Part shown: one piece after another, positions 6,510 to 64,000 of the stretch
Layout: the number at the start of each line of letters is the position of its first letter
Position numbering within the stretch: position 1 is the first letter of the stretch
NCBI GenBank assembly: GCA_047284725.1
Contig: JBJBEO010000001.1
Span: 2,072,203 to 2,136,202 of the forward strand
DNA from: Synechococcus sp.
GTDB lineage: Bacteria > Cyanobacteriota > Cyanobacteriia > PCC-6307 > Cyanobiaceae
DNA length: 64,000 bases
Direction of reading: 5' to 3'
The notes under the pieces: generated by a model
Databases searched by the model: none
What the model was told of the DNA's origin: nothing
Seen by the model: the letters and a program-made list of their open reading frames with translations, nothing else
Made by a program: the position numbers and the translations under genes

Positions 6510-7604
6510 ATGGACCTCACAACCCTGACCCAGCGACTGGAGGCAGCCACCACCAGTTTTCAGACCTTGGAGCGACAACTCGCCGATCCTGATGTGGCCT
6601 CGGATCCAAAACGGCTGCAGACAATCGCCCAGGAACGATCAAGACTCGAGCCGCTGGTGCTGGATTACCAGAGCCTGCAACAGGTGGAACAAGAGCGTCG
6701 TCAGGCGGAAGAGATGCTCAAAGACAGCCGTGGCGACACAGCGATGGAAGAGCTGGCCCGGCACGAGATCCAGGATCTCAACGAACGTCACGCTGCTTTG
6801 GTGCAAAGCGTCACTCTGGCGCTCTTGCCTCGAGATCCACGTGACGAGCGCAGCGTGATGCTTGAGATCAGGGCAGGCGCTGGTGGCGATGAAGCCTGTC
6901 TCTGGGCGGGTGATCTCGCTCGGATGTATGAGCGTTACGGCAGTCGCCAGGGCTGGAACGTCCAACCGGTGAGTGCCAACGCCGCTGATCTCGGTGGCTA
7001 TCGCGAGCTCATCCTCTCGGTCAAAGGGGGGGCCGTCTTCAGCCAGCTCAAATTCGAAGCTGGTGTGCACCGCGTGCAACGGGTGCCGGCCACCGAATCC
7101 CAGGGCCGGGTTCACACCTCCACAGCCACCGTGGCCGTGATGCCCGAGGCAGATCCCGTGGAAGTGCAGATTGACCCCACTGAGCTTGAAATCAGCACCG
7201 CACGCTCCGGCGGAGCCGGGGGACAGAACGTGAACAAGGTTGAGACGGCGGTGGATCTGCTGCACAAACCCACTGGAATCCGGGTGTTCTGCACCCAGGA
7301 ACGCTCCCAGCTGCAGAACCGTGAGCGGGCTCTGGAGATTCTGCGGGCCAAGCTCTACGAACGCCAGCTCGCTGAAGCCAATGCCGCCGAAAGTTCAGCC
7401 CGACGGGCTCAGGTGGGCACCGGCGATCGCAGCGAAAAAATCCGCACCTACAACGCCAAGGACAACAGGGTCACCGATCACCGTCTCGGCCGGAACTTCA
7501 GTCTTGACTCTGTGCTGGAAGGCCAGATTGAAGACGTGGTGGAGGCCTGTATCGCCGAAGAGCAACGGGCCAAGCTGGAAGCGCTCACCCAAGATGACGA
7601 CTGA
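6510..7604 (+). CDS. prfA: Peptide chain release factor 1
   Basis: GGQ motif (GAGGQNVNK), PAT tripeptide (RVPATE). Confidence 0.97.
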
Positions 7605-7617
7605 GCCGAATCCAATC

Positions 7618-8118
7618 TCAAGGCCCAATCATGTACTTGGCCCAATCGGCACGCTGACCTGTGGCGATTTGACGCCTGGCTTCAAAGGTGAGATGCCCCA
7701 CGGGGCGGTGGGGCTGATGACGCAGTGGCATCTTCGCTTCCTGGGGAGTGCGATTCCCCTTGCGAACATTGCAGCTCAGACAGGCTGTGGTGACGTTGTC
7801 CCAGCTATCGGAGCCACCCCTGCTCCGGGGAATGATGTGATCCATGGAAAGCTGACCACCCTTGCTGCCGCAGTACTGGCAACAGTGGTTGTCACGCTGA
7901 AACAAGTTGCGCCGGGTCAGTGCCAACGGACGGAAGGGAACGTGAACAAACTGCCGCAGGCGAATCACTGTGGGCAAATGCAGATCAGGCCGCAGGCGAC
8001 GGTGAGGATCATGCTCCAGACCCTCAGCCTTCCCCTTCAACAGCATCACCGTGGCGCGGCGCCATGTGGTGATATTCAGCGGCTCGTAGGACGCATTGAG
8101 AACGAGAACCTGGCCCAT
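7618..8118 (-). CDS. HNH endonuclease (McrA-like, small)
   Basis: VLVLNASYEP N-terminus; RD..CQYC, DHIIPRSRGG..WDN..AC..CN..K. Confidence 0.9.
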   Translation of the reverse strand: MGQVLVLNASYEPLNITTWRRATVMLLKGKAEGLEHDPHRRLRPDLHLPTVIRLRQFVHVPFRPLALTRRNLFQRDNHCCQYCGSKGGQLSMDHIIPRSRGGSDSWDNVTTACLSCNVRKGNRTPQEAKMPLRHQPHRPVGHLTFEARRQIATGQRADWAKYMIGP

Positions 8119-8191
8119 GCCAGCCACTGGATTCACAGGCATGCTATGGGGACTTTCCGCTTTGGTCTGTGCCCACCGCAACGATGGCTCC

Positions 8192-9373
8192 ATGCGTGAT
8201 CTGATCAGCGGTAGTCATGAGACGGCCAGCCAGAGCGATCACAGCCGGCTGGACCCCCGTCAGCGCGCCTGGCTTGAGGTCTCACCGGCAGCGGTGGAAA
8301 CCAACGTGCGCGCCCTGCGTCGCCTGTTGCGGCCATCGTGTGCCCTGATGGCGGTTGTGAAAGCGGACGGCTACGGGCATGGCGCCGCGACTGTGGCCAG
8401 AGCAGCGGTGGAAGGGGGCGCGGCCCAGTTCGGGGTAGCCACTCTTCAGGAGGGCATCGACCTGCGTCGCGCCGGCCTAACGCAGCCGGTGCTTGTACTG
8501 GGGCATCTGCACCTGGCCGAAGACCTGCGGGCATGCCTGAAATGGGAACTCATGCCCACGCTGAGCAGCATGCGAGAAGCCCTGCTGTGTCAGAACCTGG
8601 CCGACGGCAGCGGACGCAAGTTCGCCGTACAGCTCAAACTCGACACCGGCATGACCCGGCTGGGCTGTGCCTGGGAGGATGCCCCCAGATTGAGCGAAGC
8701 CATCAGCCAGCTTGACCAGCTGGAGCTGAGCGGTATCTACAGCCACCTTGCTCTGGCCGATGGGGACGCGAATGGGGATGGAGAACGGGTGACACGCCTG
8801 CAGCAACAACGTTTCGACGATGTACTGCGCTGTTTGCCGCCAAGCCGTGCCCTGCACCATCTCGCCAATTCCGCGGGAACACTCCGCGACCGATGCCTGC
8901 ATCACGATCTGGTGCGAGTCGGCCTAGCCCTTTACGGCCACAGCCCCAGCTCCCATCTGGACGCCAAGGTCAAGCTCGAACCGGCGATGCACGTCAAAGC
9001 ACGCGTGACCTTGATCCGCGACGTCGCCGCCGGTGTCGGCGTCAGCTACGGCCATCGTTTTGTTACCGAACGTCCTAGCCGTCTGGCAGTTGTCGGCATT
9101 GGGTATGCCGACGGCGTCAGCCGCTGCCTCTCAGGCAAGATCAGCGCCCTGCACAACAGCCAGGTACTGCCTCAAGTGGGGGCGATCACCATGGACCAGC
9201 TCATCCTTGATGTCACGGATCACCCCCACGTGGAAGCCGGTGATGTCGTCACCCTGCTCGGTCGCGACGGAGAGCGAATTATCAGCCCCCGTGACTGGAG
9301 CGATCTGAGTGATTCGATCCCATGGGAAGTGCTTTGCGGTTTCAAGCATCGCTTGCCCAGGGTGACGGTCTGA
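8192..9373 (+). CDS. alr: Alanine racemase
   Basis: AVVKADGYGHG PLP-lysine motif, DTGMTRLG, GYADG. Confidence 0.96.
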   Translation: MRDLISGSHETASQSDHSRLDPRQRAWLEVSPAAVETNVRALRRLLRPSCALMAVVKADGYGHGAATVARAAVEGGAAQFGVATLQEGIDLRRAGLTQPVLVLGHLHLAEDLRACLKWELMPTLSSMREALLCQNLADGSGRKFAVQLKLDTGMTRLGCAWEDAPRLSEAISQLDQLELSGIYSHLALADGDANGDGERVTRLQQQRFDDVLRCLPPSRALHHLANSAGTLRDRCLHHDLVRVGLALYGHSPSSHLDAKVKLEPAMHVKARVTLIRDVAAGVGVSYGHRFVTERPSRLAVVGIGYADGVSRCLSGKISALHNSQVLPQVGAITMDQLILDVTDHPHVEAGDVVTLLGRDGERIISPRDWSDLSDSIPWEVLCGFKHRLPRVTV

Positions 9374-9441
9374 AGGCAGGTCCTGTTTGACCGATGGCGA
9401 GGCCGACTGGGCCTGCTGGTTGGTAAGGTGGGCGTGCCGCT

Positions 9442-9530
9442 GGAGAGGTGGCTGAGTGGTTGAAAGCGGCTCCCTGCTAAGGAGTTACAGGAGGCAACTT
9501 CTGTCGAGGGTTCGAATCCCTCCCTCTCCG
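9442..9530 (+). tRNA. tRNA-Ser(GCT)
   Basis: GGAGAGG/CCTCTCC acceptor stem, anticodon loop ctGCTaa, long variable arm, GGTTCGAATCC. Confidence 0.97.
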
Positions 9531-9675
9531 TTGAATTCACCGAGTGCTGAGGTCTTCCCAAACCTCGCTTGGATTGGCTGCATGTCGTTCAGCAACGGCT
9601 TGCGCCAATTCTGTGCCTTGTGAGTAACCATTCCCACGTGTTTCTTCGCGGGAATCCTGTTGATTCCCCAGTCCG

Positions 9676-9999
9676 TTGTTTCTCACACCATCCCGCCAAC
9701 GCTTCAAGGAACTCTGCCGGGCCAAGGGAGTGCAGCATCGTCAGGTGCTTGATCAGCTGGTTGAGCTGTATGTGAGCACGCAAGGTGCGATTCTCCAGGG
9801 CCATGGTCATTCCATACCTCCCGCCGCGATGCCACTGCCGGAGGAAACAACCACCGAGCTCATCGAGCGGATCGAACGACTCGAATGTGATGACCGGGAG
9901 TTTGTGCACGCCTTTGAAGTGCTGATCCACAGGGTGGACGCACTGGAAAAGAGCATCGGAACGCCCCGCAACGAGTCGAAGCACACCCCCAAACCCTGA
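9676..9999 (+). CDS. Hypothetical protein, possible ribbon-helix-helix N-terminus plus coiled coil
   Basis: TTG-start ORF; RQRFKELCRAKG..HRQVLDQLVELYV pattern; C-terminal heptad-like segments. Confidence 0.5.
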   Translation: MFLTPSRQRFKELCRAKGVQHRQVLDQLVELYVSTQGAILQGHGHSIPPAAMPLPEETTTELIERIERLECDDREFVHAFEVLIHRVDALEKSIGTPRNESKHTPKP

Positions 10000-10035
10000 C
10001 CTGCCCTGCACCGCTGTCTTGATTCAACAGGCATG

Positions 10036-10062
10036 AAAAAGGGGTGGTTGATGCCACCCCTT
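10036..10062 (-). terminator. Rho-independent terminator
   Basis: GGGGTGG-TTGATG-CCACCCC hairpin preceded by AAAAA (U-tract on the minus strand). Confidence 0.8.
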
Positions 10063-10184
10063 GCCCTTGAGGCCTCCTTGTGTCGAACCAGTTGGAGCGG
10101 CCTCACTGGGGATGTCTTCGCTGTAAGCGACTTGGAGGCTCTGTTGCATCGGTAAGAACACGTATCCCTGGGATGACCGTCCCA

Positions 10185-11078
10185 TCAAGCCTGGAAGGCG
10201 GCCAGCTGACTGGCCAGCTCGGGAAGCAACGCTTCATCGGCAGCGCAGACAGGCCCTTCCGTGAATGCCACCAGCAACATGGGATGCCGTTCCTGCGGAA
10301 GCCACCAGGCGGCATCATGCCGGGCTTGACTCATCCACCCAGCCTTGCTCCACAGCCTGCTGCCCTCGGGCAAACCAGCACCCAGAAATCCATCCACCTG
10401 ATTCTCAGGATCAGCAGAGCGCTGTTCAGCATCCAGCGAGCGATCCAACAGATCACGCAGGCGTTTGCAGGCAGGGGGGGAGAGCACCGCATCGGTCATC
10501 ACAGCTTCAAGGAGCCGCGCTGTGGCCGCCGTGCTCAGGGCGTTGCGGTTGTCAAGGTCCGCTCCGTAAAAATCGCGTTCCCTGCCATAGGGACCTTCAC
10601 CCCAGGTTTTCTGACAGCAGTTCACTGCGGCCAGTTCGGGCCAGCCAAGGGTCTGCAGCCAGTCATTCACCAGCCGGCGTTGCCGCTGCCACAACAACCA
10701 AGCCTCACCCTGCAGGGTGGGACCACTTGTTGTGCCCGTCAGCAGATCCACCAGCAGGGCGGTGGCGTCGTTCCCTGAATCGGCGATCATGTCGCGCAAG
10801 GCCCGGCGCAGTTCCTCCCCCTCAGGAAGCAGATCCCGTTGCAGCCAGGCCTCCACAGCCACGGCATAAAAAAGCTTCACCACGCTGGCGGGATACATCA
10901 AACGCTGCTCAGCCCAGGCAGCCCCCCACCCTTGTCCAGCAACCGGATCGGGCTGGTCGTAGCGAACCCAGGTGATGGCGATGCGCTCCAGCAGCCCCTC
11001 CCGCCCTTGCGCCGCCAGACGCCTGAGCTGAAGCGCCAGATACTCCTGCATGACCTGGTCGGGGCGGTAGAACGCCAT
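10185..11078 (-). CDS. Class A beta-lactamase-like serine hydrolase
   Basis: ASVVK (SxxK), DSGN (SxN), SKAG (KxG) motifs. Confidence 0.88.
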   Translation of the reverse strand: MAFYRPDQVMQEYLALQLRRLAAQGREGLLERIAITWVRYDQPDPVAGQGWGAAWAEQRLMYPASVVKLFYAVAVEAWLQRDLLPEGEELRRALRDMIADSGNDATALLVDLLTGTTSGPTLQGEAWLLWQRQRRLVNDWLQTLGWPELAAVNCCQKTWGEGPYGRERDFYGADLDNRNALSTAATARLLEAVMTDAVLSPPACKRLRDLLDRSLDAEQRSADPENQVDGFLGAGLPEGSRLWSKAGWMSQARHDAAWWLPQERHPMLLVAFTEGPVCAADEALLPELASQLAAFQA

Positions 11079-26904: not shown

Positions 26905-28383
26905 TCAACGCGTCAACTTTCTGATCATGCGATGAACAATTCGACCTGGGTGCAATGACCAGAAAGACGTCTCTTGTCCTTTCTGATTGATCGGATCCGC
27001 CAAGGATTTTTGAGTAGAAAACAATCCCAAAACGGCCTCAAAGGACAGAGGGCGATAAAAATAAAAGCCTTGAGCTAAGAGAACACCCATGTCTTTGGCG
27101 AATGACAGCTGAGCCGATGTCTCGATCCCCTCTGCAACAACCTTCATACCGCTTTGAACCAGCGACGCAACAATACCCTTCAGAATCAGCTCCTTCTGAG
27201 CATCAAGCTCACCCGCAAAAGCGACAAAAAAACGATCCAGTTTAACCGTATTAATATCGGTTTCCAAGAGACGCTTCAAAGAGGAATAACCGATCCCAAA
27301 ATCGTCAATGGCAACGACAGCCCCCAAGCCTTTAAGCCGTGCAATAAATTCATCCATGTCTGCATTGGAAATTGTCACCTCTTGCTCAAGAATTTCAAAT
27401 TGAAACGATATATCAGGACACGTCGAAGCGACTCGAGAAACTGAATCAATGATTTTCTCCCTTGCCACAGGCGAGTTAAACGTTGCTCCGGAAATATTAA
27501 TACTGAAAACAAAATGTTTTAAATTAATGGAGTTTTTCATTACAAGCAGATCAGAGACTCCTCTTTCGAGAACGGTAAGATCAAACGTCTCAACCAACGC
27601 GTACTTCTGAAAGACCGGCAGAAACCTATTTGGAGAGTGCAAAACGCCATTAGCCTTGATGCGCGCTAACACCTCAAAACCGACAATCTGATTCGTTTGC
27701 AAATTGACGATCGGCTGGTAATGGGGCTCAACAAGGGAACGAGACAACTGATCAATGAATATTTTTTCAAAGTCGGCTTCGACATCAGGCTCTATCAAGG
27801 AATGAATTCCTTGAGCACTGAAAGAAGAAACAAGATAGCGATGGCCAAAATCTTTTTTAAACTCTTGATCACTACTCAAGAGCGCGTCCATCAGTAAAAT
27901 CGGATTGGATGGAAATCTCGCCAGATCCGCATCATAAAGCCCAAGAACATCAAGCTTAAGCAAGATATCTGAGCCACCAGAACCAAGATCATCGCCCGAG
28001 GAGGTGAGATCGCGATTTGAATTAATTTTGATACACTCTAACGAGGAATCTACAAGGTCCTCAAGGAGCCTTGAAGTATTGACGGGTCCAATATCCCTCA
28101 GCTGTTGGATTAAGACCAAAAAATCAGAACCATTAATATCATAAAACTTACTTCTCTTAGGAAGAACTCCTATCAACAAACGCAGGAAATTGGCTTTTTT
28201 CCGAACACTTGCTTCGGACTCAGTTTTCCCTTCACCCAAGCGACCGAGCAACCTGTAATGAATATAGATATAATTGATATTGAAATCTTGACTAATCAGG
28301 CAATCTTCTGCAAAAGCTAGGCTCGTATAGTCAATTTCTTGACTCTCGCAATAAGACGCAAGCCAATCTAGAGAATAAATCAT
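26905..28383 (-). CDS. EAL-domain c-di-GMP phosphodiesterase with probable degenerate GGDEF-like N-terminus
   Basis: YQPIV, FEVLAR, SINIS, FEILE, DDFGIGYSS, VKLDR, VAEGIET, AQGFYF; ATG 7 nt after the upstream stop. Confidence 0.92.
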   Translation of the reverse strand: MIYSLDWLASYCESQEIDYTSLAFAEDCLISQDFNINYIYIHYRLLGRLGEGKTESEASVRKKANFLRLLIGVLPKRSKFYDINGSDFLVLIQQLRDIGPVNTSRLLEDLVDSSLECIKINSNRDLTSSGDDLGSGGSDILLKLDVLGLYDADLARFPSNPILLMDALLSSDQEFKKDFGHRYLVSSFSAQGIHSLIEPDVEADFEKIFIDQLSRSLVEPHYQPIVNLQTNQIVGFEVLARIKANGVLHSPNRFLPVFQKYALVETFDLTVLERGVSDLLVMKNSINLKHFVFSINISGATFNSPVAREKIIDSVSRVASTCPDISFQFEILEQEVTISNADMDEFIARLKGLGAVVAIDDFGIGYSSLKRLLETDINTVKLDRFFVAFAGELDAQKELILKGIVASLVQSGMKVVAEGIETSAQLSFAKDMGVLLAQGFYFYRPLSFEAVLGLFSTQKSLADPINQKGQETSFWSLHPGRIVHRMIRKLTR

Positions 28384-28390
28384 TTTAGCA

Positions 28391-29572
28391 TCAAGCACCA
28401 GTGACCTTGTTTTTACCTTTGAACTTACTTTTATACAAGAACTCATCAGCGCTGCGCATCAGCACCTCGAGACTGTAACCTGACTTAGACGTACTCGAAA
28501 AACCGGCACTAATCGTGATACGGACTGGCTGATCGCTCTTATTAAAGTGGTACATCTCAATCTGATGCCTTAAACGATTCAGCAAATTAACCGCATCCTT
28601 AGCAGTCGCTCTATATAAGATGGCAAATTCCTCTCCGCCATAGCGCGATGAGCAATCAAAATAATCCCTTGTATTACTTTTAATGATAGCACCAACCTCG
28701 GAGAGAACAACATCTCCAACACCATGGCCATAGGTGTCATTGATTCTCTTGAAGTCGTCAATATCTAAAATACAAAGACAAAAATGGTCACTCGCTTCTT
28801 GAGCCCGTAAAAGCTTTAACTTGCAAATCTCAACGAAAAGCTTTCGATCCATAAGTTGAGTCAAGCCGTCAGTTTGAAGACCTGTAAAAAGAGAAGGGAG
28901 AATCTTATAGTTGAAAAACAGATAAATTGGGAGGTAAGCAAAGAATAGTGCTACAACAGCGATGGCAAACTCAAGGAAGAATTGATTAGACAAACCATCG
29001 TAAAATCCGCTCATTGAATACGTGTAGGCAAGCGTGTATCTATCAGGCTTGCTTTGGCCTTGTCTTAGCATTTGCCTCGGCACAATCTCTCGAGAAAAAG
29101 TGACGAACTTTCCAAGCTTGTTATGATTATTTAATTCAGCCTGTGTGCATCGACGAGCCTCAAAACAAGAGGCAAGCCTTCGAAACTGTGCATTGCTTAG
29201 CTGAGGAACCAGCAATGATTGGGAGTAAATTGGTTGATTGAGCCATAAAGGGACCGACGAATAAACAATTGTACCGTCAGCATCAGCGACAATGATTGAT
29301 GTATGATCACTAAATAACAATTTCTTGTCACGTTTTGCCAGCAAAATATGGGCATCTATGTGCGAAGCCAAAGAGGAGAGTGAATGGCCTGAATCCAGGT
29401 GACTTTCCACAAGACTTACATACTCATTGGCCTTTGAATTTTGATCTTTAACTTCAGATTCAAATGCATCCATGGTTTGATATATAGCCGCAAGCAAACT
29501 TATAAACAGTGTTGAACACGCAAAGAAGATCTTTGATTGCTTTTGAATTCTACGCTTGGTAGGCCTCCTCAT
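28391..29572 (-). CDS. Membrane-bound diguanylate cyclase (2 TM, Cache-like sensor, GGEEF)
   Basis: TDGLTQL, DIDDFKRINDTYGHGVGD, RYGGEEF, TISAG, AD..LY.SK..GKN. Confidence 0.93.
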   Translation of the reverse strand: MRRPTKRRIQKQSKIFFACSTLFISLLAAIYQTMDAFESEVKDQNSKANEYVSLVESHLDSGHSLSSLASHIDAHILLAKRDKKLLFSDHTSIIVADADGTIVYSSVPLWLNQPIYSQSLLVPQLSNAQFRRLASCFEARRCTQAELNNHNKLGKFVTFSREIVPRQMLRQGQSKPDRYTLAYTYSMSGFYDGLSNQFFLEFAIAVVALFFAYLPIYLFFNYKILPSLFTGLQTDGLTQLMDRKLFVEICKLKLLRAQEASDHFCLCILDIDDFKRINDTYGHGVGDVVLSEVGAIIKSNTRDYFDCSSRYGGEEFAILYRATAKDAVNLLNRLRHQIEMYHFNKSDQPVRITISAGFSSTSKSGYSLEVLMRSADEFLYKSKFKGKNKVTGA

Positions 29573-29576
29573 TGGT

Positions 29577-30728
29577 TCACGAGTCAGCTAAAGATTGATT
29601 GGCCAAATAATAGGAGAGCTTCGTTCTACTTGAATTAGAAAAGATCGGAATTAACACAAGATTGTTTTTGAATTGAGTTCCGTCGGATCGGTAGTTAGTT
29701 ATGACGCACTGGAACCTTTTTCCTTTGGCAATGGCATCCTTGATTTCCGCCTTAATAGATACTTCAGTGTCAGGACCTTGCAAAAATCTACAATTTTTTC
29801 CCAATACAAACTCACGGGTGTAACCAGTGAGCTCAGTAAAAGCCTGGTTGGCGTAGATTGTAGGTTGGCCATCGGCCGTCATATCAGATATCGTGATACC
29901 AACGGATGATCTCTCAATAGCTTCTTTGAAAATCTCGGAATCGTCCAATATTTTTGTGACATCAGAGATGTTTTTAATTTCATCATCAAGGCTATGCTTC
30001 AAGTTTCTTATAATATTATTGTTTTTGATGTATACATTGCGCGAATAGAATAAACCTACAATGCCAACAACTGATGACATCAAGGCCGTGTAGTAAATTG
30101 GATTCATATATTCAACCTCTAAAGACTCCAAGCTCTTAACGCTCACCTCTTGTATACCTCGAAGATCACCAACCTTCCAATTTTTCTTGGGAGAATCAGG
30201 ATGAGCATTATGACAGGTGACACACGACTCTTTCATTCTCACAGGCGTTGCAAGCCTGAAAATTTCGTCTTGACCTATTTGACTGTACTTTTCGTAAAAT
30301 CGAAGCGTTGGATCCTTTTCAAAAACTTGAATGGAGTCTTGCTGAAAAGCATCGAGAGCTCTTTCCTCTTTACGGTTATTAAAAGGATATTTAGACGTAA
30401 AGGCATAATTGATTCTTCCATCTGAGTGTGTGGCATCAAAAATAGCGCCCAACTCGATGGAAAGCGTTGCAGGAATTGGAATCCCGCCCTTGAAGTCATG
30501 GTAGCGCTCAGAAAGCACAACTTTTCCCTCACCCTCTTGAACATTAGAGACGATATTTTGTGAATAATAGGCCCTGATATTGTCGACCAAAGAAGCAATC
30601 TCTACTGCCTCATTTTTCATTCTGGTTTTCGCTGCATCACGAAGACCAGTCGTAAACAGTAAAGGCAAAAGCAATCCCAAAAGAATTGAAGCAGCCAGAA
30701 AAATATTGAGAACTCGTTTAGCGCGCAC
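29577..30728 (-). CDS. Membrane sensor: c-type heme (DUF3365/Tll0287-like) domain plus LOV domain, no output domain
   Basis: TM helix; GGIPIPATLSIELG...CVTCHNAHPDSPK..WKVGDLRG; TM helix; coiled linker; YANQAF..LTGY..GKNCRFLQG..NYRSDG..F.N..Q. Confidence 0.9.
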   Translation of the reverse strand: MRAKRVLNIFLAASILLGLLLPLLFTTGLRDAAKTRMKNEAVEIASLVDNIRAYYSQNIVSNVQEGEGKVVLSERYHDFKGGIPIPATLSIELGAIFDATHSDGRINYAFTSKYPFNNRKEERALDAFQQDSIQVFEKDPTLRFYEKYSQIGQDEIFRLATPVRMKESCVTCHNAHPDSPKKNWKVGDLRGIQEVSVKSLESLEVEYMNPIYYTALMSSVVGIVGLFYSRNVYIKNNNIIRNLKHSLDDEIKNISDVTKILDDSEIFKEAIERSSVGITISDMTADGQPTIYANQAFTELTGYTREFVLGKNCRFLQGPDTEVSIKAEIKDAIAKGKRFQCVITNYRSDGTQFKNNLVLIPIFSNSSRTKLSYYLANQSLADS

Positions 30729-31807
30729 TGGAGCCTAGATGCTCTCTTTATGCTAGTAACGATTGACGCAAAAGACAAGGACAAGCAGGGAGCTTGCTCG
30801 TCTCTTCATATCCTTAGGAGACTAACAGCGCAGCGCTCATCGATTGATTGCATTGCGTACCGATCAAGCCAACCGACCTACCCTCCGGGCTGTATTTTCT
30901 TCAGCAACCTTGATTCAAGGGGGAAAAGGCATCAAGCAAAGGACAATCCTGATCGATTAATTCATCTTCCGAAAAGAATGATGCAATAACTGTTGTGTAT
31001 AAGAGAAAAAATATGTGCGATTCTTCGATCCATTCTGGGTCCACTCCTCGATCAATAGAGCCACCGGACATGGTCTTTCCATACCCAATAAGTGCCTAGA
31101 AACCGATCGCGGTCCAAGGATCATGCTGAAGACAAAAACTCTCATGCTGCCATCCACTAAATCCTAGAACTACCCGGCAATCACAACATTGATGTGCCAA
31201 GAGCATGAAGAAATCCAGTCACAATCGGATGATCTACCTCACAAGAGCCGCAACACAATGAGGCGAAGAACTCCTCATTGCGCACCATCGACTGACGTCA
31301 ACCAGCCATTGGAAGCTGGAAGGAAATCGCAGGAGTGGGCATGGCATTCTGCCTAAAACAGGCAGAACATTTCCGTCTCTTCAATCATTTGCCCGTCAAA
31401 AACTCTCATGGTTTGACCCACACTTTTCAGATGACCGACACATATAAAAATCGAAGGACAGTTTCCAGTGGGCTTTTCCAAAAGCCAATGCCAGCAATGA
31501 ATAAGCTTCTTTTCCAGGGTGCCCGCACTATCCAACCACTGCCAATCAATGAAGACATAGCACCATGATCCCTGCCTGGCGAGCATCCAAGTGATCCACA
31601 GGATCAATCACCATTGTGGCGACATCAACAGGACAAAGCATTCGCTTCAGCGATGCACGCCATGGCTGAAAACCAAAACCCATCCCCCTGTTTGGGCACT
31701 GGGCCAGTCCCCTTGTCGCTGGTGCCAGGCAATCTTTCAAGCGATCACGTGCCCACAAACGGGGCACTGCAACGCAGCAGCAACAGAGAATCTTGATGGA
31801 GATTGAG

Positions 31808-31881
31808 TCGGGATGACAGGATTCGAACCTGCGGCCCCTTCGTCCCGAACGAAGTGCGCTACCAAGCTGCGCTACATCCCG
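31808..31881 (-). tRNA. tRNA-Pro(CGG)
   Basis: Reverse complement CGGGATGTAGCGCAGCTTGGTAGCGC...ttCGGga...GGTTCGAATCCTGTCATCCCGA. Confidence 0.97.
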
Positions 31882-58186: not shown

Positions 58187-58333
58187 GGGAACTCTGATCG
58201 GCGTCTCAGCAGCGCTTCAAGTGGGACTCGACGCTAACAATCATCAGCCAAGGGCAGCGCCTCGACCCTGGACGAGGCAAGACCCGTTGCAGCAGGCGGG
58301 GCCGCGGCCTGACGAGGAAATGATTGCGGAAGC

Positions 58334-58425
58334 GTTACAGCGCTCAATCTTCCGTTACAATGGCTTTGGCAGGGCATTCCTGCCCTTCCGTAACCGTCTC
58401 TTCGGAGACCTTCTTTTCCGTTCTC
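58334..58425 (+). promoter_or_regulatory. psbA promoter and structured 5' leader
   Basis: GTTACA (58334-58339), TACAAT -10 (58356-58361); hairpins AGGGCA-TTCC-TGCCCT and GTCTC-TTCG-GAGAC. Confidence 0.7.
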
Positions 58426-59505
58426 ATGACCACCACCATTCAGCAGCGCTCCGGCGCCACTGGCTGGCAGCAGTTCTGCGAGTGGGTCACCTCCACCAAC
58501 AACCGCCTCTATGTGGGCTGGTTCGGTGTGCTGATGATCCCCACCCTGCTGGCCGCCACCACCTGCTTCATCGTTGCGTTCATCGCAGCACCCCCCGTCG
58601 ACATCGACGGCATCCGTGAGCCCGTTGCTGGCTCTCTGATTTATGGCAACAACATCATCTCCGGTGCTGTTGTTCCTTCCTCCAACGCCATCGGCCTGCA
58701 CTTCTATCCCATCTGGGAAGCGGCTTCTCTCGATGAGTGGCTGTACAACGGCGGTCCCTACCAGCTGGTTGTCTTCCACTTCCTGATCGGCATCTTCTGC
58801 TACATGGGTCGCGAGTGGGAACTCTCCTACCGCCTCGGCATGCGCCCCTGGATCTGCGTTGCCTACAGCGCACCTGTGGCTGCTGCTTCTGCAGTGTTCC
58901 TGGTCTACCCCTTCGGTCAGGGTTCCTTCTCTGACGGCATGCCCCTGGGCATCTCCGGCACCTTCAACTTCATGCTGGTGTTCCAGGCCGAGCACAACAT
59001 CCTGATGCACCCCTTCCACATGCTGGGTGTGGCTGGTGTTTTCGGCGGCAGCCTGTTCTCCGCCATGCATGGCTCCCTGGTGACCTCCTCCCTGGTGCGT
59101 GAAACCACCGAGAGCGAGTCCCCGAACTACGGCTACAAGTTCGGCCAAGAGGAAGAGACCTATAACATCGTGGCTGCCCACGGTTACTTCGGTCGCCTGA
59201 TCTTCCAATACGCTTCCTTCAACAACAGCCGCAGCCTTCACTTCTTCCTGGCTGCCTGGCCTGTCGTTGGCATCTGGTTCACTGCCCTGGGCGTCAGCAC
59301 CATGGCCTTCAACCTGAACGGTTTCAACTTCAACCAGTCCATCCTTGATGGTCAGGGCCGCGTCCTGAACACCTGGGCTGATGTGCTGAACCGCGCCAAC
59401 CTCGGCATGGAAGTGATGCACGAGCGCAACGCTCACAACTTCCCCCTCGACCTGGCTGCTGCCGAGTCCACTCCTGTGGCTCTGCAGGCTCCTGCCATCG
59501 GCTGA
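58426..59505 (+). CDS. psbA: Photosystem II D1 protein, D1:2 (Glu130) form
   Basis: MTTTIQQR start, [15 protein letters not shown]. Confidence 0.99.
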
Positions 59506-59880: not shown

Positions 59881-61380
59881 TTGCGCGTGAGCAAAGAACT
59901 TCGACGATCGAAAATATTCCAGAAGACCGGCTGCACCAGGCTCTGTTTTGTCCTGGGTGGAATCGGAGCATCGCTCACCATTGGAGCCACTTCACTCACC
60001 TACCTGTTTCTGCACGAGCAACTGGAATTCACTGCGTCACTCCTGGCCAAGGAGCGGGTTTCAGCTGCCTGTGGTTCGTTGCATTCGCTGACCTTTGAGT
60101 TACTGGAATCATCGCTGAACCGCACCGATCCAAAGCGAGATCTACCTGCATGGACGCTGGGAACAGGCAACTACACAGCCGATGGCATCAGGTGGACCTC
60201 ACCCCCAGCGTCAGAGCTCAAGCGCAACGTCACACGCATCCCCCAACAACAGGCTGTTCACAGAGGGCACGGCAAAGCATCTCCGACCACCGAGCCTGAG
60301 CGCAACGAAGCCGCGCACAAACTTCGTCATTCGGTACCAGAAAGCGCTTGCACCTTACATGGAGTTCAAAAGAACGGCGAAGGGAGGGCACTACCAGTCG
60401 CGCTGTTTTCCATCCCTAGAGAACAGCAGCAGATCGCACTGGCAACTCTGTCCGATGAAGGCATCGCTCTCGACGAAAACGACACAGGACGATTTGCCAT
60501 CATTGATCTCACAAAGATGATCAATTCATTCGCAATGAATGAAAATCAATCCCTGATGTCAAGCTGGCTCCCTGACGAAAAAGCCTGGCTGAAGATTGAA
60601 ACATCTTTATCCACATATTCGATGGACAACGTGAAGCATGTGAGCGATGAACATATCCACTACCTGACGAATCCTCCTGATCCAATACAAAGACAACAAG
60701 CGTCTGAGACAGGTCTTCACCAGATCGTTCTCCTCACAGCCAATGGCATGGAAATCATCTATGAAGCATGGGTGGATTACAGCCTCCTTGATCGCCTACC
60801 CAAACGCATCGCCGGACTGATTTTCATTATCGGGTTGATGAGCTCTGGGGTTGGAGTGATGATGAGTCGAACTGCACTGATCAAGGAAGCGAAGATCAGT
60901 GAAGAACTCCGCAGACAGAGCAGAACCGACAGCCTGACGGAACTTCCGAATCGTCGCGAGTGGGACGAACGTCTGGATCAAGAAAACAACATCCTGCAGC
61001 GACACAATCGGAGCTATGCCATCGCCGTAATCGACCTTGATGGGTTCAAAGCAATCAATGATTCATTGGGGCATGCGGCTGGCGATTTGCTTCTCAAGCG
61101 TGCGGGCAAGACCCTGAAAGCAATGATTCGCAGCGAGGACATCGCCGCAAGGGTCGGTGGCGATGAATTCACCGTTCTCTTCTGTGAACCAACAGAGGAT
61201 GGCGAGGAACAACTCCTGAAGCGTCTTGAAACCACCTTCAACGAACAAGGGATCAGCACGTCGATCGGGATTGCCTACTCCCAACGGAATCAAACCCTCA
61301 TGGACCTCTGGCATCGCGCGGATCAACTGATGTATGACTTCAAATCTGCGAAAAAAACCAAGAGGGAACGCAACGACTAG
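59881..61380 (+). CDS. Membrane-bound diguanylate cyclase (2 TM, large extracytoplasmic domain, GGDEF)
   Basis: TDSLTELPNRR, DLDGFKAINDSLGHAAGD, RSED I-site, RVGGDEF, SIGIA, ADQLMY..K. Confidence 0.92.
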   Translation: MRVSKELRRSKIFQKTGCTRLCFVLGGIGASLTIGATSLTYLFLHEQLEFTASLLAKERVSAACGSLHSLTFELLESSLNRTDPKRDLPAWTLGTGNYTADGIRWTSPPASELKRNVTRIPQQQAVHRGHGKASPTTEPERNEAAHKLRHSVPESACTLHGVQKNGEGRALPVALFSIPREQQQIALATLSDEGIALDENDTGRFAIIDLTKMINSFAMNENQSLMSSWLPDEKAWLKIETSLSTYSMDNVKHVSDEHIHYLTNPPDPIQRQQASETGLHQIVLLTANGMEIIYEAWVDYSLLDRLPKRIAGLIFIIGLMSSGVGVMMSRTALIKEAKISEELRRQSRTDSLTELPNRREWDERLDQENNILQRHNRSYAIAVIDLDGFKAINDSLGHAAGDLLLKRAGKTLKAMIRSEDIAARVGGDEFTVLFCEPTEDGEEQLLKRLETTFNEQGISTSIGIAYSQRNQTLMDLWHRADQLMYDFKSAKKTKRERND

Positions 61381-63125: not shown

Positions 63126-64000
63126 TCAGCGCAGCTGAACCAGACAACCCTCACTGCGAGGCGGGGGCTTTGGTGTTGTGGTCCCATGGGGATCCGCCAG
63201 CGGAGCAGCCGCCAGGGTGTCGTTGAAACGATCGCGAATCGCAATGACCTCATCGGCATGGGCTTCGATGGCATCAACGCAGCGATGGTCCAGCTTTCCA
63301 GTCGCGACCAGTCGCCTCAATTCAGCCATCGCCTCGTCAGGGCATCGAAGACATCGGCGACCGCAATGATGCGCGCCTCTAACGGCACGGCATCTCCGGA
63401 CAAACGATTGGGGTAACCGGAGCCATCGAGACAGTCGTGATGGGCCGACACCACATTGAGCATGACGTCAGCATCCGGCAGTTGATCAAGTTGAAAATCA
63501 CCGAGCATGCGTTGCAGTACAACGAACCCTTTGTTCACGTGGGTTCCCATCACCGCCCGTTCGGCTGGCGTCGACGGGCCTGGCCTGAGGATGATCCGGT
63601 CAGGAATGCCGATCTTGCCGATGTCGTGCAAGGGCGCAAACAGATAAAGATGCTCGATGTATTCATCGGTCAGAGCACAGTCGCGCTGGAGATGCTTGGC
63701 AAACTCCCGGACGACATGGGCCGACGATGCCATGGAACGCACCAGACTCATGTCTCGACTGATGGTCATGCCCATCAACATCGAGAAAACCGACAGGTCT
63801 TTCTGCACCCGAGGCGTGAACGCCGCTAAAGAACAGGAGTCGTAGAAGAGAACGCCGATGAATTCTCTGCCTTCAAACAACGGAACCGTGAACGACGACT
63901 GGTAACCCTGATCAAGCAACCAGCGGGAATGGCGGTTCACGGGCTTCACCACCTCCTAGATCGCGTCGAGAACCCTCGGCTCACCTGTGCACGCCATGGT
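63126..64000 (-). pseudogene. GAF + HD-GYP phosphodiesterase pseudogene (5' end beyond window)
   Basis: LHDIGKIGIPD, HH..LDGSGYP, ARIIAVADVFDALT; in-frame TAG at 63956-63958; frameshift near 63335-63340. Confidence 0.88.

Follow-up and report, generated by a model that had tools for sequence, protein, structure and literature searches.

A candidate cyclic di-GMP cassette with a putative heme-c/LOV dual sensor in a picocyanobacterial genome

We analyzed a stretch of 64,000 nucleotides from a Synechococcus sp. genome (contig JBJBEO010000001.1; hereafter, the window), and in particular three adjacent genes on its minus strand that seem to provide a sensor together with enzymes to make and break cyclic di-GMP (c-di-GMP). 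Gene 1 (29577..30728) encodes an output-less putative dual sensor of 383 amino acids, as judged from its open reading frame (ORF), Pfam matches, and a family alignment. Gene 2 (28391..29572; ORF, Pfam, and hydropathy) encodes a putative membrane-bound diguanylate cyclase of 393 amino acids, and gene 3 (26905..28383; ORF, Pfam, and orthologue length) encodes a putative cytosolic EAL phosphodiesterase of 492 amino acids. The same trio recurs in freshwater picocyanobacteria (see below).

The three genes are nearly contiguous. The listed ORFs on the minus strand run from 29577 to 30728 (383 amino acids, with a GTG start), from 28391 to 29572 (393 amino acids), and from 26905 to 28446 (513 amino acids). 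When we read the junctions directly, the TGA stop codon of the sensor gene was followed by 4 nucleotides (ACCA) and then the ATG of the cyclase gene, and the TGA of the cyclase gene was followed by 7 nucleotides (TGCTAAA) and an ATG at 28383. From this ATG, the third gene encodes 492 amino acids, and two orthologues (P0122, 76% identity, and P0123, 72% identity) are also exactly 492 amino acids long. We rejected the start that gives 513 amino acids: it would make the gene overlap the cyclase gene by 56 nucleotides, and the 492-amino-acid orthologues favor the ATG at 28383.

The trio also differs from its surroundings in composition. The G+C content (GC) of the trio is 40 to 43%; it is 0.40 to 0.44 from about 26.9 to 31.5 kb and about 0.60 on both sides, which makes a sharp island. 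At third codon positions, the GC (GC3) is 0.40 to 0.42 in the trio versus 0.68 to 0.80 in six core genes of the flanks (cbiG/cobJ, lipA, glsF, psaA, psaB, and tufA). That three strong Pfam matches should follow one another on the same strand, inside a sharp compositional island, is far beyond what chance could produce. These results bear out an initial annotation of the locus, which was made from the sequence alone and had described three AT-rich, codirectional genes with gaps of 4 and 7 nucleotides; its assignment of CxxCH and LOV, GGEEF, and EAL domains also proved right, given the Pfam domain search, the alignments, and the PDB matches that are described below.

The sensor, the cyclase, and the phosphodiesterase

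Gene 1 encodes, in order, a transmembrane segment (TM1), a periplasmic heme-c Cache domain, a second transmembrane segment (TM2), a helical linker, and a LOV domain. (All features in this section are on the minus strand.) TM1, which may be a signal anchor, covers residues 7-27 (30648..30710; Kyte-Doolittle 19-residue maximum of 2.5). TM2 covers approximately residues 209-231 (30036..30104); its hydropathy of 1.47 is the second highest in the protein, and it lies between the two Pfam domains. The length of 383 amino acids is shared by the orthologues P0001 (97% identity) and P0003 (85% identity).

The periplasmic domain (residues 32-197; 30138..30635) matches sCache_heme (Tll0287-like, PF11845) with E = 3.2e-22 and 80 bits, as compared to a cutoff of 24.1 bits, and the match spans positions 3-143 of the 144 in the profile. 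Translation of the coordinates places a c-type heme attachment motif, CVTCH, at residues 169-173 (30210..30224). C169, C172, and H173 are invariant in all 15 aligned sequences, and M165 and H176 are also invariant in the family alignment. There are no cysteines in the periplasmic domain besides those of the CxxCH motif. As there is no axial cysteine, the sensor does not have the Cys/His ligation that characterizes stand-alone proteins of the redox type.

The LOV domain (residues 266-378; 29595..29933) includes a match to PAS_9 at residues 277-368 (E = 5.8e-14) and, by translation, the motif GKNCRFLQG, with the adduct-forming cysteine, at residues 310-318 (29775..29801). In the family alignment, N312, C313, R314, Q317, N345, N355, and Q378 are invariant. 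We take N345, N355, and Q378 to be the remaining residues of the flavin site (two asparagines, and the terminal glutamine on the beta sheet). One arginine position of the domain varies: it is arginine in freshwater forms (RIRxA) and lysine in the window's sensor (IKDAI). The 60 PDB matches that were listed for this domain are all LOV proteins or domains (E from 4.6e-21 to 7e-17), and they include RsLOV (the best, at 4.6e-21), DsLOV, EL222, YtvA, phototropins, aureochromes, and one LOV-activated diguanylate cyclase. Judged by these residues and matches, the PAS domain of the sensor is a canonical LOV domain. The protein ends five residues past the conserved glutamine of the LOV domain. It has no J-alpha-type helix and no output domain, whether enzymatic or DNA-binding, so the initial description of it as output-less holds.

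The sensor is thus predicted to carry both a covalent heme c and a LOV flavin. Because hydrophobic segments precede the first domain and separate the two, the heme domain probably faces outward and the LOV domain is probably cytoplasmic; this topology comes from hydropathy only, which does not distinguish the periplasm from the thylakoid lumen. The covalent attachment of heme c requires an extracytoplasmic location, and export of the heme-c domain depends on TM1. One database entry for the sensor (P0002; 347 amino acids; 29577-30620) starts at Met37 and would have no N-terminal membrane anchor; its start was probably called incorrectly. We also considered whether the sensor might be a truncated pseudogene, and we rejected this because of its large family, the conserved length of its orthologues, and the well-supported clade of output-less sensors (see below).

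Gene 2 encodes two transmembrane segments (TM1, residues 15-34, 29471..29530; TM2, residues 196-222, 28907..28987; both by hydropathy), and between them is a periplasmic PAS/Cache-like domain of about 160 residues (28988..29470). The GGDEF domain (residues 234-389; 28406..28873; Pfam E = 1.1e-37) has the motif RYGGEEF. We aligned the protein with two close orthologues (P0125 and P0126) and eleven from freshwater forms. In all 14 sequences, D270, D272, K275, N278, D279, R310, and the GGEE at 312-315 are invariant, and in the AlphaFold 2 (AF2) model, which has a mean predicted local distance difference test score (pLDDT) of 85.7, the GGDEF domain superposes on solved cyclases with a root-mean-square deviation (rmsd) of 1.8 to 2.6 A. 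We presume that the invariant columns of this protein, and those of the EAL protein, are the catalytic positions. The active site of the cyclase therefore appears to be intact, and catalysis is predicted.

A site that affects regulation seems to have changed. The eleven freshwater orthologues all have an RxxD motif five residues before GGDEF (for example, RPED). In the window's cyclase, P0125, and P0126, the corresponding sequence is RDYFD, with one extra residue, so they do not have the RxxD site. The RxxD inhibitory site is optional in many cyclases and does not define them. Product inhibition of the window's cyclase may be altered.

The outer domain of the cyclase is likely, but not proven, to be of the Cache type. 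It has no match in Pfam, and the fold search mostly picked up the GGDEF part and said little about the outer domain. In the AF2 model, a long helix is followed by two strands, then by helices, and then by another two strands, an order that is PAS/Cache-like. A language-model (Atlas) search with this domain gave, as its first match, a cluster in which 63% of the members have sCache_3_2 (score of 0.93, with 175 shared features). A word-based search with the N-terminal region matched just four proteins. Within the 14-sequence alignment, G100, W110, F130, and C136 of the outer domain are invariant. There is another cysteine, C142, which is kept in the freshwater orthologues with variable spacing; C136 and C142 could form a periplasmic disulfide, which would add a redox input.

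Gene 3 encodes an EAL domain (27049..27750; Pfam E = 6.1e-52) and has no hydrophobic transmembrane segment, as judged by hydropathy. E237 (in the motif EVL), R241, N296, E330, E333, D360, D361, K381, E418, and Q438 are invariant in all 15 aligned sequences, and the EAL domain of the AF2 model matches solved EAL domains with an rmsd of 2.3 to 3 A. The active site thus seems to be intact, and phosphodiesterase activity is predicted.

The first 205 or so residues of the EAL protein (27769..28383) match no Pfam family, and a word-based search of 5.8 billion clusters with this N-terminus found only three proteins, all of them close orthologues. Four weak lines of evidence agree that this region is probably a degenerate GGDEF domain. 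First, hhalign with the N-terminus alone gave E = 0.099, which is not significant, in a register that puts INGSDF at the position of the GGDEF motif. Second, 21 of the 30 Atlas matches were GGDEF clusters (score of 0.94, with only 135 shared features). Third, residues 1-201 of the AF2 model have a pLDDT below 50, and the order of their strands and helices fits GGDEF. Fourth, the top fold matches of the protein are GGDEF-EAL tandems (MorA, PA0575, DosP, and LapD), with 446 to 475 columns aligned. In freshwater picocyanobacteria, the third protein has about 655 amino acids, and its GAF, degenerate GGDEF, and EAL domains are all detectable with Pfam.

Conservation of the trio and its genomic island

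To find the trio in other genomes, we scanned one genome per species, which returned 79 loci, none of them above 46% identity to the window's sensor. Thirteen of the loci have a full-length homologue of the sensor (38 to 46% identity), and at the remaining 66 the match is limited to the LOV part. At 12 of the 13, tblastn with the window's cyclase detected a homologue of it downstream of the sensor and on the sensor's strand, and an EAL gene comes next. At the thirteenth (L002), the contig stops just past the sensor. Thus, all 12 of the loci that can be evaluated carry the trio in the same order. The cyclases at these loci match the window's cyclase over residues 93-390, which includes the outer domain. 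Several loci have ORFs that overlap by 4 nucleotides, such as those at 7836-9335, 9332-10543, and 10540-12507 of L001. The closer orthologues, which are 72 to 85% identical to the window's proteins, keep identical lengths (383, 394, and 492 amino acids). The sensor-cyclase-EAL trio is a conserved unit in freshwater picocyanobacteria.

The freshwater loci have a GC of 63 to 73%, and their flanks are unlike those of the trio in the window, which implies that the trio moved as a block. Seven of the 13 freshwater loci (L001, L002, L003, L004, L009, L012, and L013) are near ndhF/ndhD-like genes (Proton_antipo_M). In L013 (5816-7858 and 12290-14197) and L003, the trio sits between such genes, and in L001 (6067-7059), it is also near a gene for an SbtA-type bicarbonate transporter. 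This neighborhood may reflect a link to carbon-uptake genes, or it may be mere shared synteny. One locus, L008, has an extra ORF (7336-8469, plus strand) between the cyclase and EAL genes, which encodes an NMT1/THI5-like protein of the periplasmic-binding type. Two loci, L004 and L011, come from metagenome-assembled genomes that are titled Bradyrhizobium ivorense and Chitinophaga pinensis, yet they carry the picocyanobacterial trio. The ndhF-like genes of L004 are 85 to 88% identical to those of Cyanobium-type loci, and both bins are probably mislabelled or mixed.

The sensor belongs to a large family. Over 600 homologues (as clusters at 90% identity) have the same two domains at E ≤ 0.001; they are mostly 450 to 530 amino acids long and mostly from Cyanobium or Synechococcaceae sources. 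Just three of these clusters are more than 50% identical to the window's sensor (97%, 85%, and 55%). Of 120 homologues listed, 114 keep both the NCR[FY]LQ and CxxCH motifs. We also searched 1.84 billion representatives exhaustively with HMMER, which yielded 149 matches below 1e-30. From 150 listed homologues, we selected 23 by eye for matches that extend over both domains and identified their other domains with Pfam: 18 are fused to parts of histidine kinases, one is fused to GGDEF (P0266, 553 amino acids), and four are output-less. The LOV motif is kept in six of the kinase fusions and is missing from P0266. These fusions to kinase or GGDEF outputs imply that the unit of heme-Cache, transmembrane segment, and LOV is an established input module.

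We built a tree of 35 sensor sequences; it has midpoint rooting only, and it leaves out the sensors of L009 and L012, whose ORF bounds are unsettled, and most of the homologues. In this tree, the output-less sensors form one clade (Shimodaira-Hasegawa-like approximate likelihood ratio test [SH-aLRT] support of 99), and the nearest outgroup is a kinase fusion. The clade includes a "long" freshwater clade (support of 98), whose sensors have a helical C-terminal tail of about 100 residues, and a "short" clade (98), which includes the window's sensor and its relatives P0003, P0004, P0053/P0132, P0100, and P0134. The window's type of trio has neither the sensor tail nor the GAF domain of the phosphodiesterase. 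This joint loss, which we saw once, suggests, and no more than suggests, that the tail and the GAF domain are a contact pair; one evolutionary event lies behind it. What is new here is that the trio is a conserved unit and that the output-less sensors are one clade whose nearest relatives are histidine-kinase fusions.

In the window, the trio lies near a tRNA gene. A tRNA-Pro(CGG) gene (31807..31881, minus strand; identified with ARAGORN and, at 65.8 bits, with the Rfam tRNA family) has its 3' end toward the island, and this end likely marks the site at which the island integrated. Between the sensor gene and the tRNA is a leader of about 1.08 kb (30729..31806) with intermediate GC (0.42 to 0.55) and no recognizable gene: none of its six small ORFs had a convincing Pfam match, to an integrase or otherwise, so no mobility genes were found there. 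An Rfam search found no RNA family inside the island. No second copy of the 25-nucleotide 3' part of the tRNA (with up to 3 mismatches) and no relevant repeats are present in the window. In other words, of the features of a tRNA-linked island, we found atypical composition beside a tRNA gene, and we did not find an integrase or a direct repeat of the tRNA's 3' end. A terminator-like hairpin followed by a run of Ts (30780..30802, minus strand) lies about 50 nucleotides upstream of the sensor's GTG start; it could stop a read-through transcript from the side of the tRNA or serve as an attenuator. As a whole, our scan for promoters and terminators was not above shuffled controls.

The flanking genes are typical of picocyanobacteria: they include secY, rpoA, psaL, psaA and psaB with the psaA leader RNA, cbiG/cobJ, lipA, Fd-GOGAT, fusA/tufA, and psbA. 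The atypical composition of the trio and the adjoining tRNA-Pro point to a foreign origin, as had been proposed initially, and the locus fits a cassette that was acquired horizontally and lies beside tRNA-Pro in the chromosome of a picocyanobacterium, which has a GC of about 60%. In Table 1 of PMC3747582, c-di-GMP domains are absent from all of 12 Prochlorococcus and 5 marine Synechococcus genomes, which agrees with the earlier remark that c-di-GMP genes are scarce in marine picocyanobacteria.

Possible modes of signaling

Our explanation for these observations is that an imported three-gene c-di-GMP cassette encodes a dual sensor that acts in trans on the products of the neighboring genes. 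On balance we believe this, though only just. The three genes would be transcribed as one unit. A dimer of the sensor would merge an extracytoplasmic heme signal, most likely nitric oxide (NO) or another small heme ligand, or else redox state, with blue light, which would be perceived via the flavin-cysteine adduct of the LOV domain. Having no output domain, the sensor would relay the result by direct contact with its operon partners and shift the balance between the synthesis of c-di-GMP by the second protein and its breakdown by the third. The cyclase would be the most likely direct partner, as it is in the same membrane, is translationally coupled to the sensor, and also has an outer domain of the Cache type. 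In the freshwater forms, the tail of the sensor may make a second contact with the phosphodiesterase's GAF domain; the tail and this domain are both missing from the marine-type version. The cellular output is a guess: by analogy with other cyanobacteria, it could be aggregation or surface behavior.

For the proposed trans action of the sensor on the two enzymes, we rely on the gene order, the tight coupling of the genes, and a precedent from another branch of the heme-Cache family. In Pseudomonas azotoformans, a receptor with a periplasmic CxxCH Cache domain, a transmembrane link, and a small cytoplasmic domain (Cache_heme-HAMP, or CHH) is output-less, as is the window's sensor, and its presumed output is encoded in its operon. 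A 2026 preprint (bioRxiv 10.64898/2026.05.25.727664) shows that an output-less Cache_heme-HAMP receptor binds the Ser/Thr kinase that its operon encodes; the affinity is nanomolar, and phosphorylation is enhanced by NO. The window's sensor differs in that it has LOV instead of HAMP, its neighbors are GGDEF and EAL proteins instead of a Ser/Thr kinase, and its host is a picocyanobacterium. In Pfam searches, it has no HAMP domain and its neighbors include no PknB-like kinase, so it is not a CHH-type receptor.

Several findings weigh against this explanation. We infer both the single transcript and the contact between the proteins from indirect evidence, and a scan for consensus promoters found 6 sites, as compared to 8.5 ± 2.9 in shuffled sequence. 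We identified no receptor for c-di-GMP. Since the 12 loci come from related picocyanobacteria, the conserved gene order is partly due to shared descent. Among the relatives of the sensor module that do have outputs, 18 of 19 are histidine-kinase fusions rather than GGDEF or EAL fusions, which suggests that the ancestral partner logic was a phosphorelay. Both enzymes bear extra domains of their own and could be regulated independently. The marine-type version has lost the sensor tail and the GAF domain and has RxxxD in place of the freshwater RxxD, so the window's cassette may be a trimmed or partly disabled derivative. Finally, the island has neither an integrase, as judged by Pfam for the ORFs of the leader, nor an att repeat in the window.

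The most credible alternative concerns the signal. The heme domain might read the redox state outside the cytoplasm (in the periplasm or the thylakoid lumen, for example from soluble electron carriers) rather than a gas, and so couple photosynthetic or respiratory redox to blue light. We consider this rather unlikely. The initial annotation had left the cue as redox or gas, and the domain can now be named: PMC12889525 describes sCache_heme (DUF3365/Tll0287-like, PF11845) as a Cache domain with covalent heme c, in which CxxCH is 99% conserved, and in members that serve in signaling it describes behavior like that of NO sensors. The tested signaling-type member, a membrane-bound protein from P. 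azotoformans, has an NO off-rate like those of H-NOX and NosP and forms no stable O2 complex; the tested stand-alone member, from P. putida with Tll0287-like Cys/His ligation, behaves as a redox protein, as do stand-alone members including the cyanobacterial founder Tll0287 (PMC12889525). A redox role would also agree with the sequence in that the two compartments cannot be told apart, and in that the invariant M165 and H176, if they are ligands, could give a stable six-coordinate heme. However, the window's sensor has no axial cysteine, unlike the redox type, and its transmembrane-coupled architecture is that of the class in which the tested member showed tight NO binding and no stable O2 complex, although this comparison involves a single measured representative per class. 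Given the signaling architecture and the lack of an axial cysteine, the leading candidate is NO or some other small ligand of the heme, and redox is its rival.

A second alternative, which we judge to be slightly less probable still, is that the trio travels together and the sensor forms no complex with the enzymes. Each enzyme would be under the control of its own N-terminal domains: the cyclase would respond via its PAS/Cache-like domain and the phosphodiesterase via its own N-terminus (GAF and degenerate GGDEF in freshwater forms). The sensor would signal elsewhere, to a kinase or a transcription factor, or act as a short LOV protein does. That each enzyme has an extra domain fits this view, as does the preponderance of histidine kinases (18, with one GGDEF) among the 19 homologous input modules with outputs. 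It also qualifies the earlier picture of the two enzymes as outputs of the sensor: they may well be outputs, but with a PAS/Cache-like domain in the cyclase and an additional N-terminal domain in the EAL protein, they are not mere outputs. The conserved order at all 12 evaluable loci, with stop and start codons that overlap or nearly abut, and the relocation of the trio as a block to a new genomic context are not expected if the proteins act separately. Furthermore, only one output-less heme-Cache receptor has been studied to date, and its output is its operon partner.

Third, it is very unlikely that the cassette is decaying island cargo with little or no present function in this genome: the losses relative to the freshwater trio (the sensor tail, the GAF domain, and the canonical RxxD), an EAL-protein N-terminus that has diverged so far that only three proteins match it in the word-based search, and the absence of remaining mobility genes would fit decay, but the three ORFs are intact, all of the invariant catalytic and cofactor columns are kept, orthologues at 72 to 85% identity have identical lengths, and the separate "short" clade has several members, which implies that the short form is a maintained variant.

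A bolder form of our preferred explanation, the trans-acting dual sensor, is that these proteins are a new class of membrane photoreceptor in which NO or redox and blue light together physically gate both the cyclase and the phosphodiesterase. We offer this tentatively and think it doubtful. Under it, the joint loss of the tail and the GAF domain would suggest that these two touch, and that the sensor and the cyclase make the remaining contact through their membrane and outer domains. If it were true, the trio would be a compact logic gate for c-di-GMP in picocyanobacteria, and the cassette would give a marine lineage light- and NO-dependent control of aggregation or attachment to particles.

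The trio resembles several known systems. In LOV-GGDEF and LOV-GGDEF-EAL fusions (such as PDB 8c05, PMC10396304), LOV couples blue light to c-di-GMP turnover; 8c05 is among the matches of the sensor's LOV domain (E = 2.4e-18), and many of the LOV-only loci from our scan carry LOV and then GGDEF and EAL matches. However, these fusions are single polypeptides with a coiled coil, whereas the window's LOV protein is separate and membrane-bound, with heme as a second sensor and no J-alpha-like helix. Short LOV proteins (RsLOV, 4hia and 7ob0; DsLOV, 4kuk; PpSB1/SB2) are the best of the LOV-domain matches listed and also have no fused effector, but they are small and soluble, while the window's sensor is a membrane-anchored protein with a heme-Cache domain ahead of LOV and is encoded in a conserved operon with enzymes. 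H-NOX and NosP are output-less heme sensors that are genetically linked to c-di-GMP enzymes and act by protein contact. Unlike the window's sensor, they are soluble, cytoplasmic heme-b proteins with unrelated folds and no light input; both are named as NO sensors in PMC12889525. In Thermosynechococcus, SesA, SesB, and SesC (PMC5871770) likewise set c-di-GMP by light, with cell aggregation as the output, but their cyanobacteriochrome-GAF domains are fused to the enzymes, and there is no operon and no heme sensor.

All of the domains of the trio belong to known families; the dual sensor and the trio appear to be undescribed in the literature that we searched, where no paper dealt with a protein that combines heme-Cache and LOV or with the trio, although the supplementary tables of the two Cache_heme preprints and the tables of LOV censuses could list this architecture. 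In the two Cache_heme preprints, LOV is mentioned 0 times.

Few phototrophs are as abundant as the marine picocyanobacteria, and c-di-GMP genes are entirely absent from most of their sequenced strains (Table 1 of PMC3747582), so a strain with an imported cassette to make, break, and sense is a natural experiment on c-di-GMP in a planktonic cell, possibly with control of aggregation and sinking. The sensor itself would have cofactor inputs on opposite sides of the membrane, with heme c outside and flavin inside, and no output domain. How output-less LOV or heme-Cache receptors signal is an open question, for which the conserved neighboring enzymes are testable candidate partners. The large family, with its two natural forms (long and short), could be used to map the contact surfaces.

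Other genes in the window

The initial annotation had called the trio a self-contained switch. It does comprise a set to make, break, and sense, but self-contained is too strong, as the window also contains a second GGDEF gene and an HD-GYP-type gene; thus, the trio is not the strain's sole c-di-GMP equipment. The second GGDEF protein (59881-61380, plus strand; 499 amino acids) has its GGDEF domain at residues 349-492 (E = 6.5e-37) and no Pfam match in its first 348 residues; the gene has a GC of 0.52 and a GC3 of 0.57. Near the end of the window, another gene (63317-63952, minus strand) encodes an HD_5 protein (HD-GYP-type, PF13487, E = 2.2e-21) with a weak remnant of a GAF domain.

Directly upstream of the second GGDEF gene is psbA (58324-59505, plus strand), which encodes D1 (Photo_RC, E = 1.7e-90), and the psbA leader has a PhotoRC-I RNA motif (58367-58409, plus strand). 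We rejected an ORF of 400 amino acids at 58234-59436, which is antisense to psbA, as a shadow ORF. Lastly, a stand-alone HNH endonuclease ORF (7618-8193, minus strand; E = 4.2e-17) lies between prfA and alr in a region that otherwise consists of core genes.

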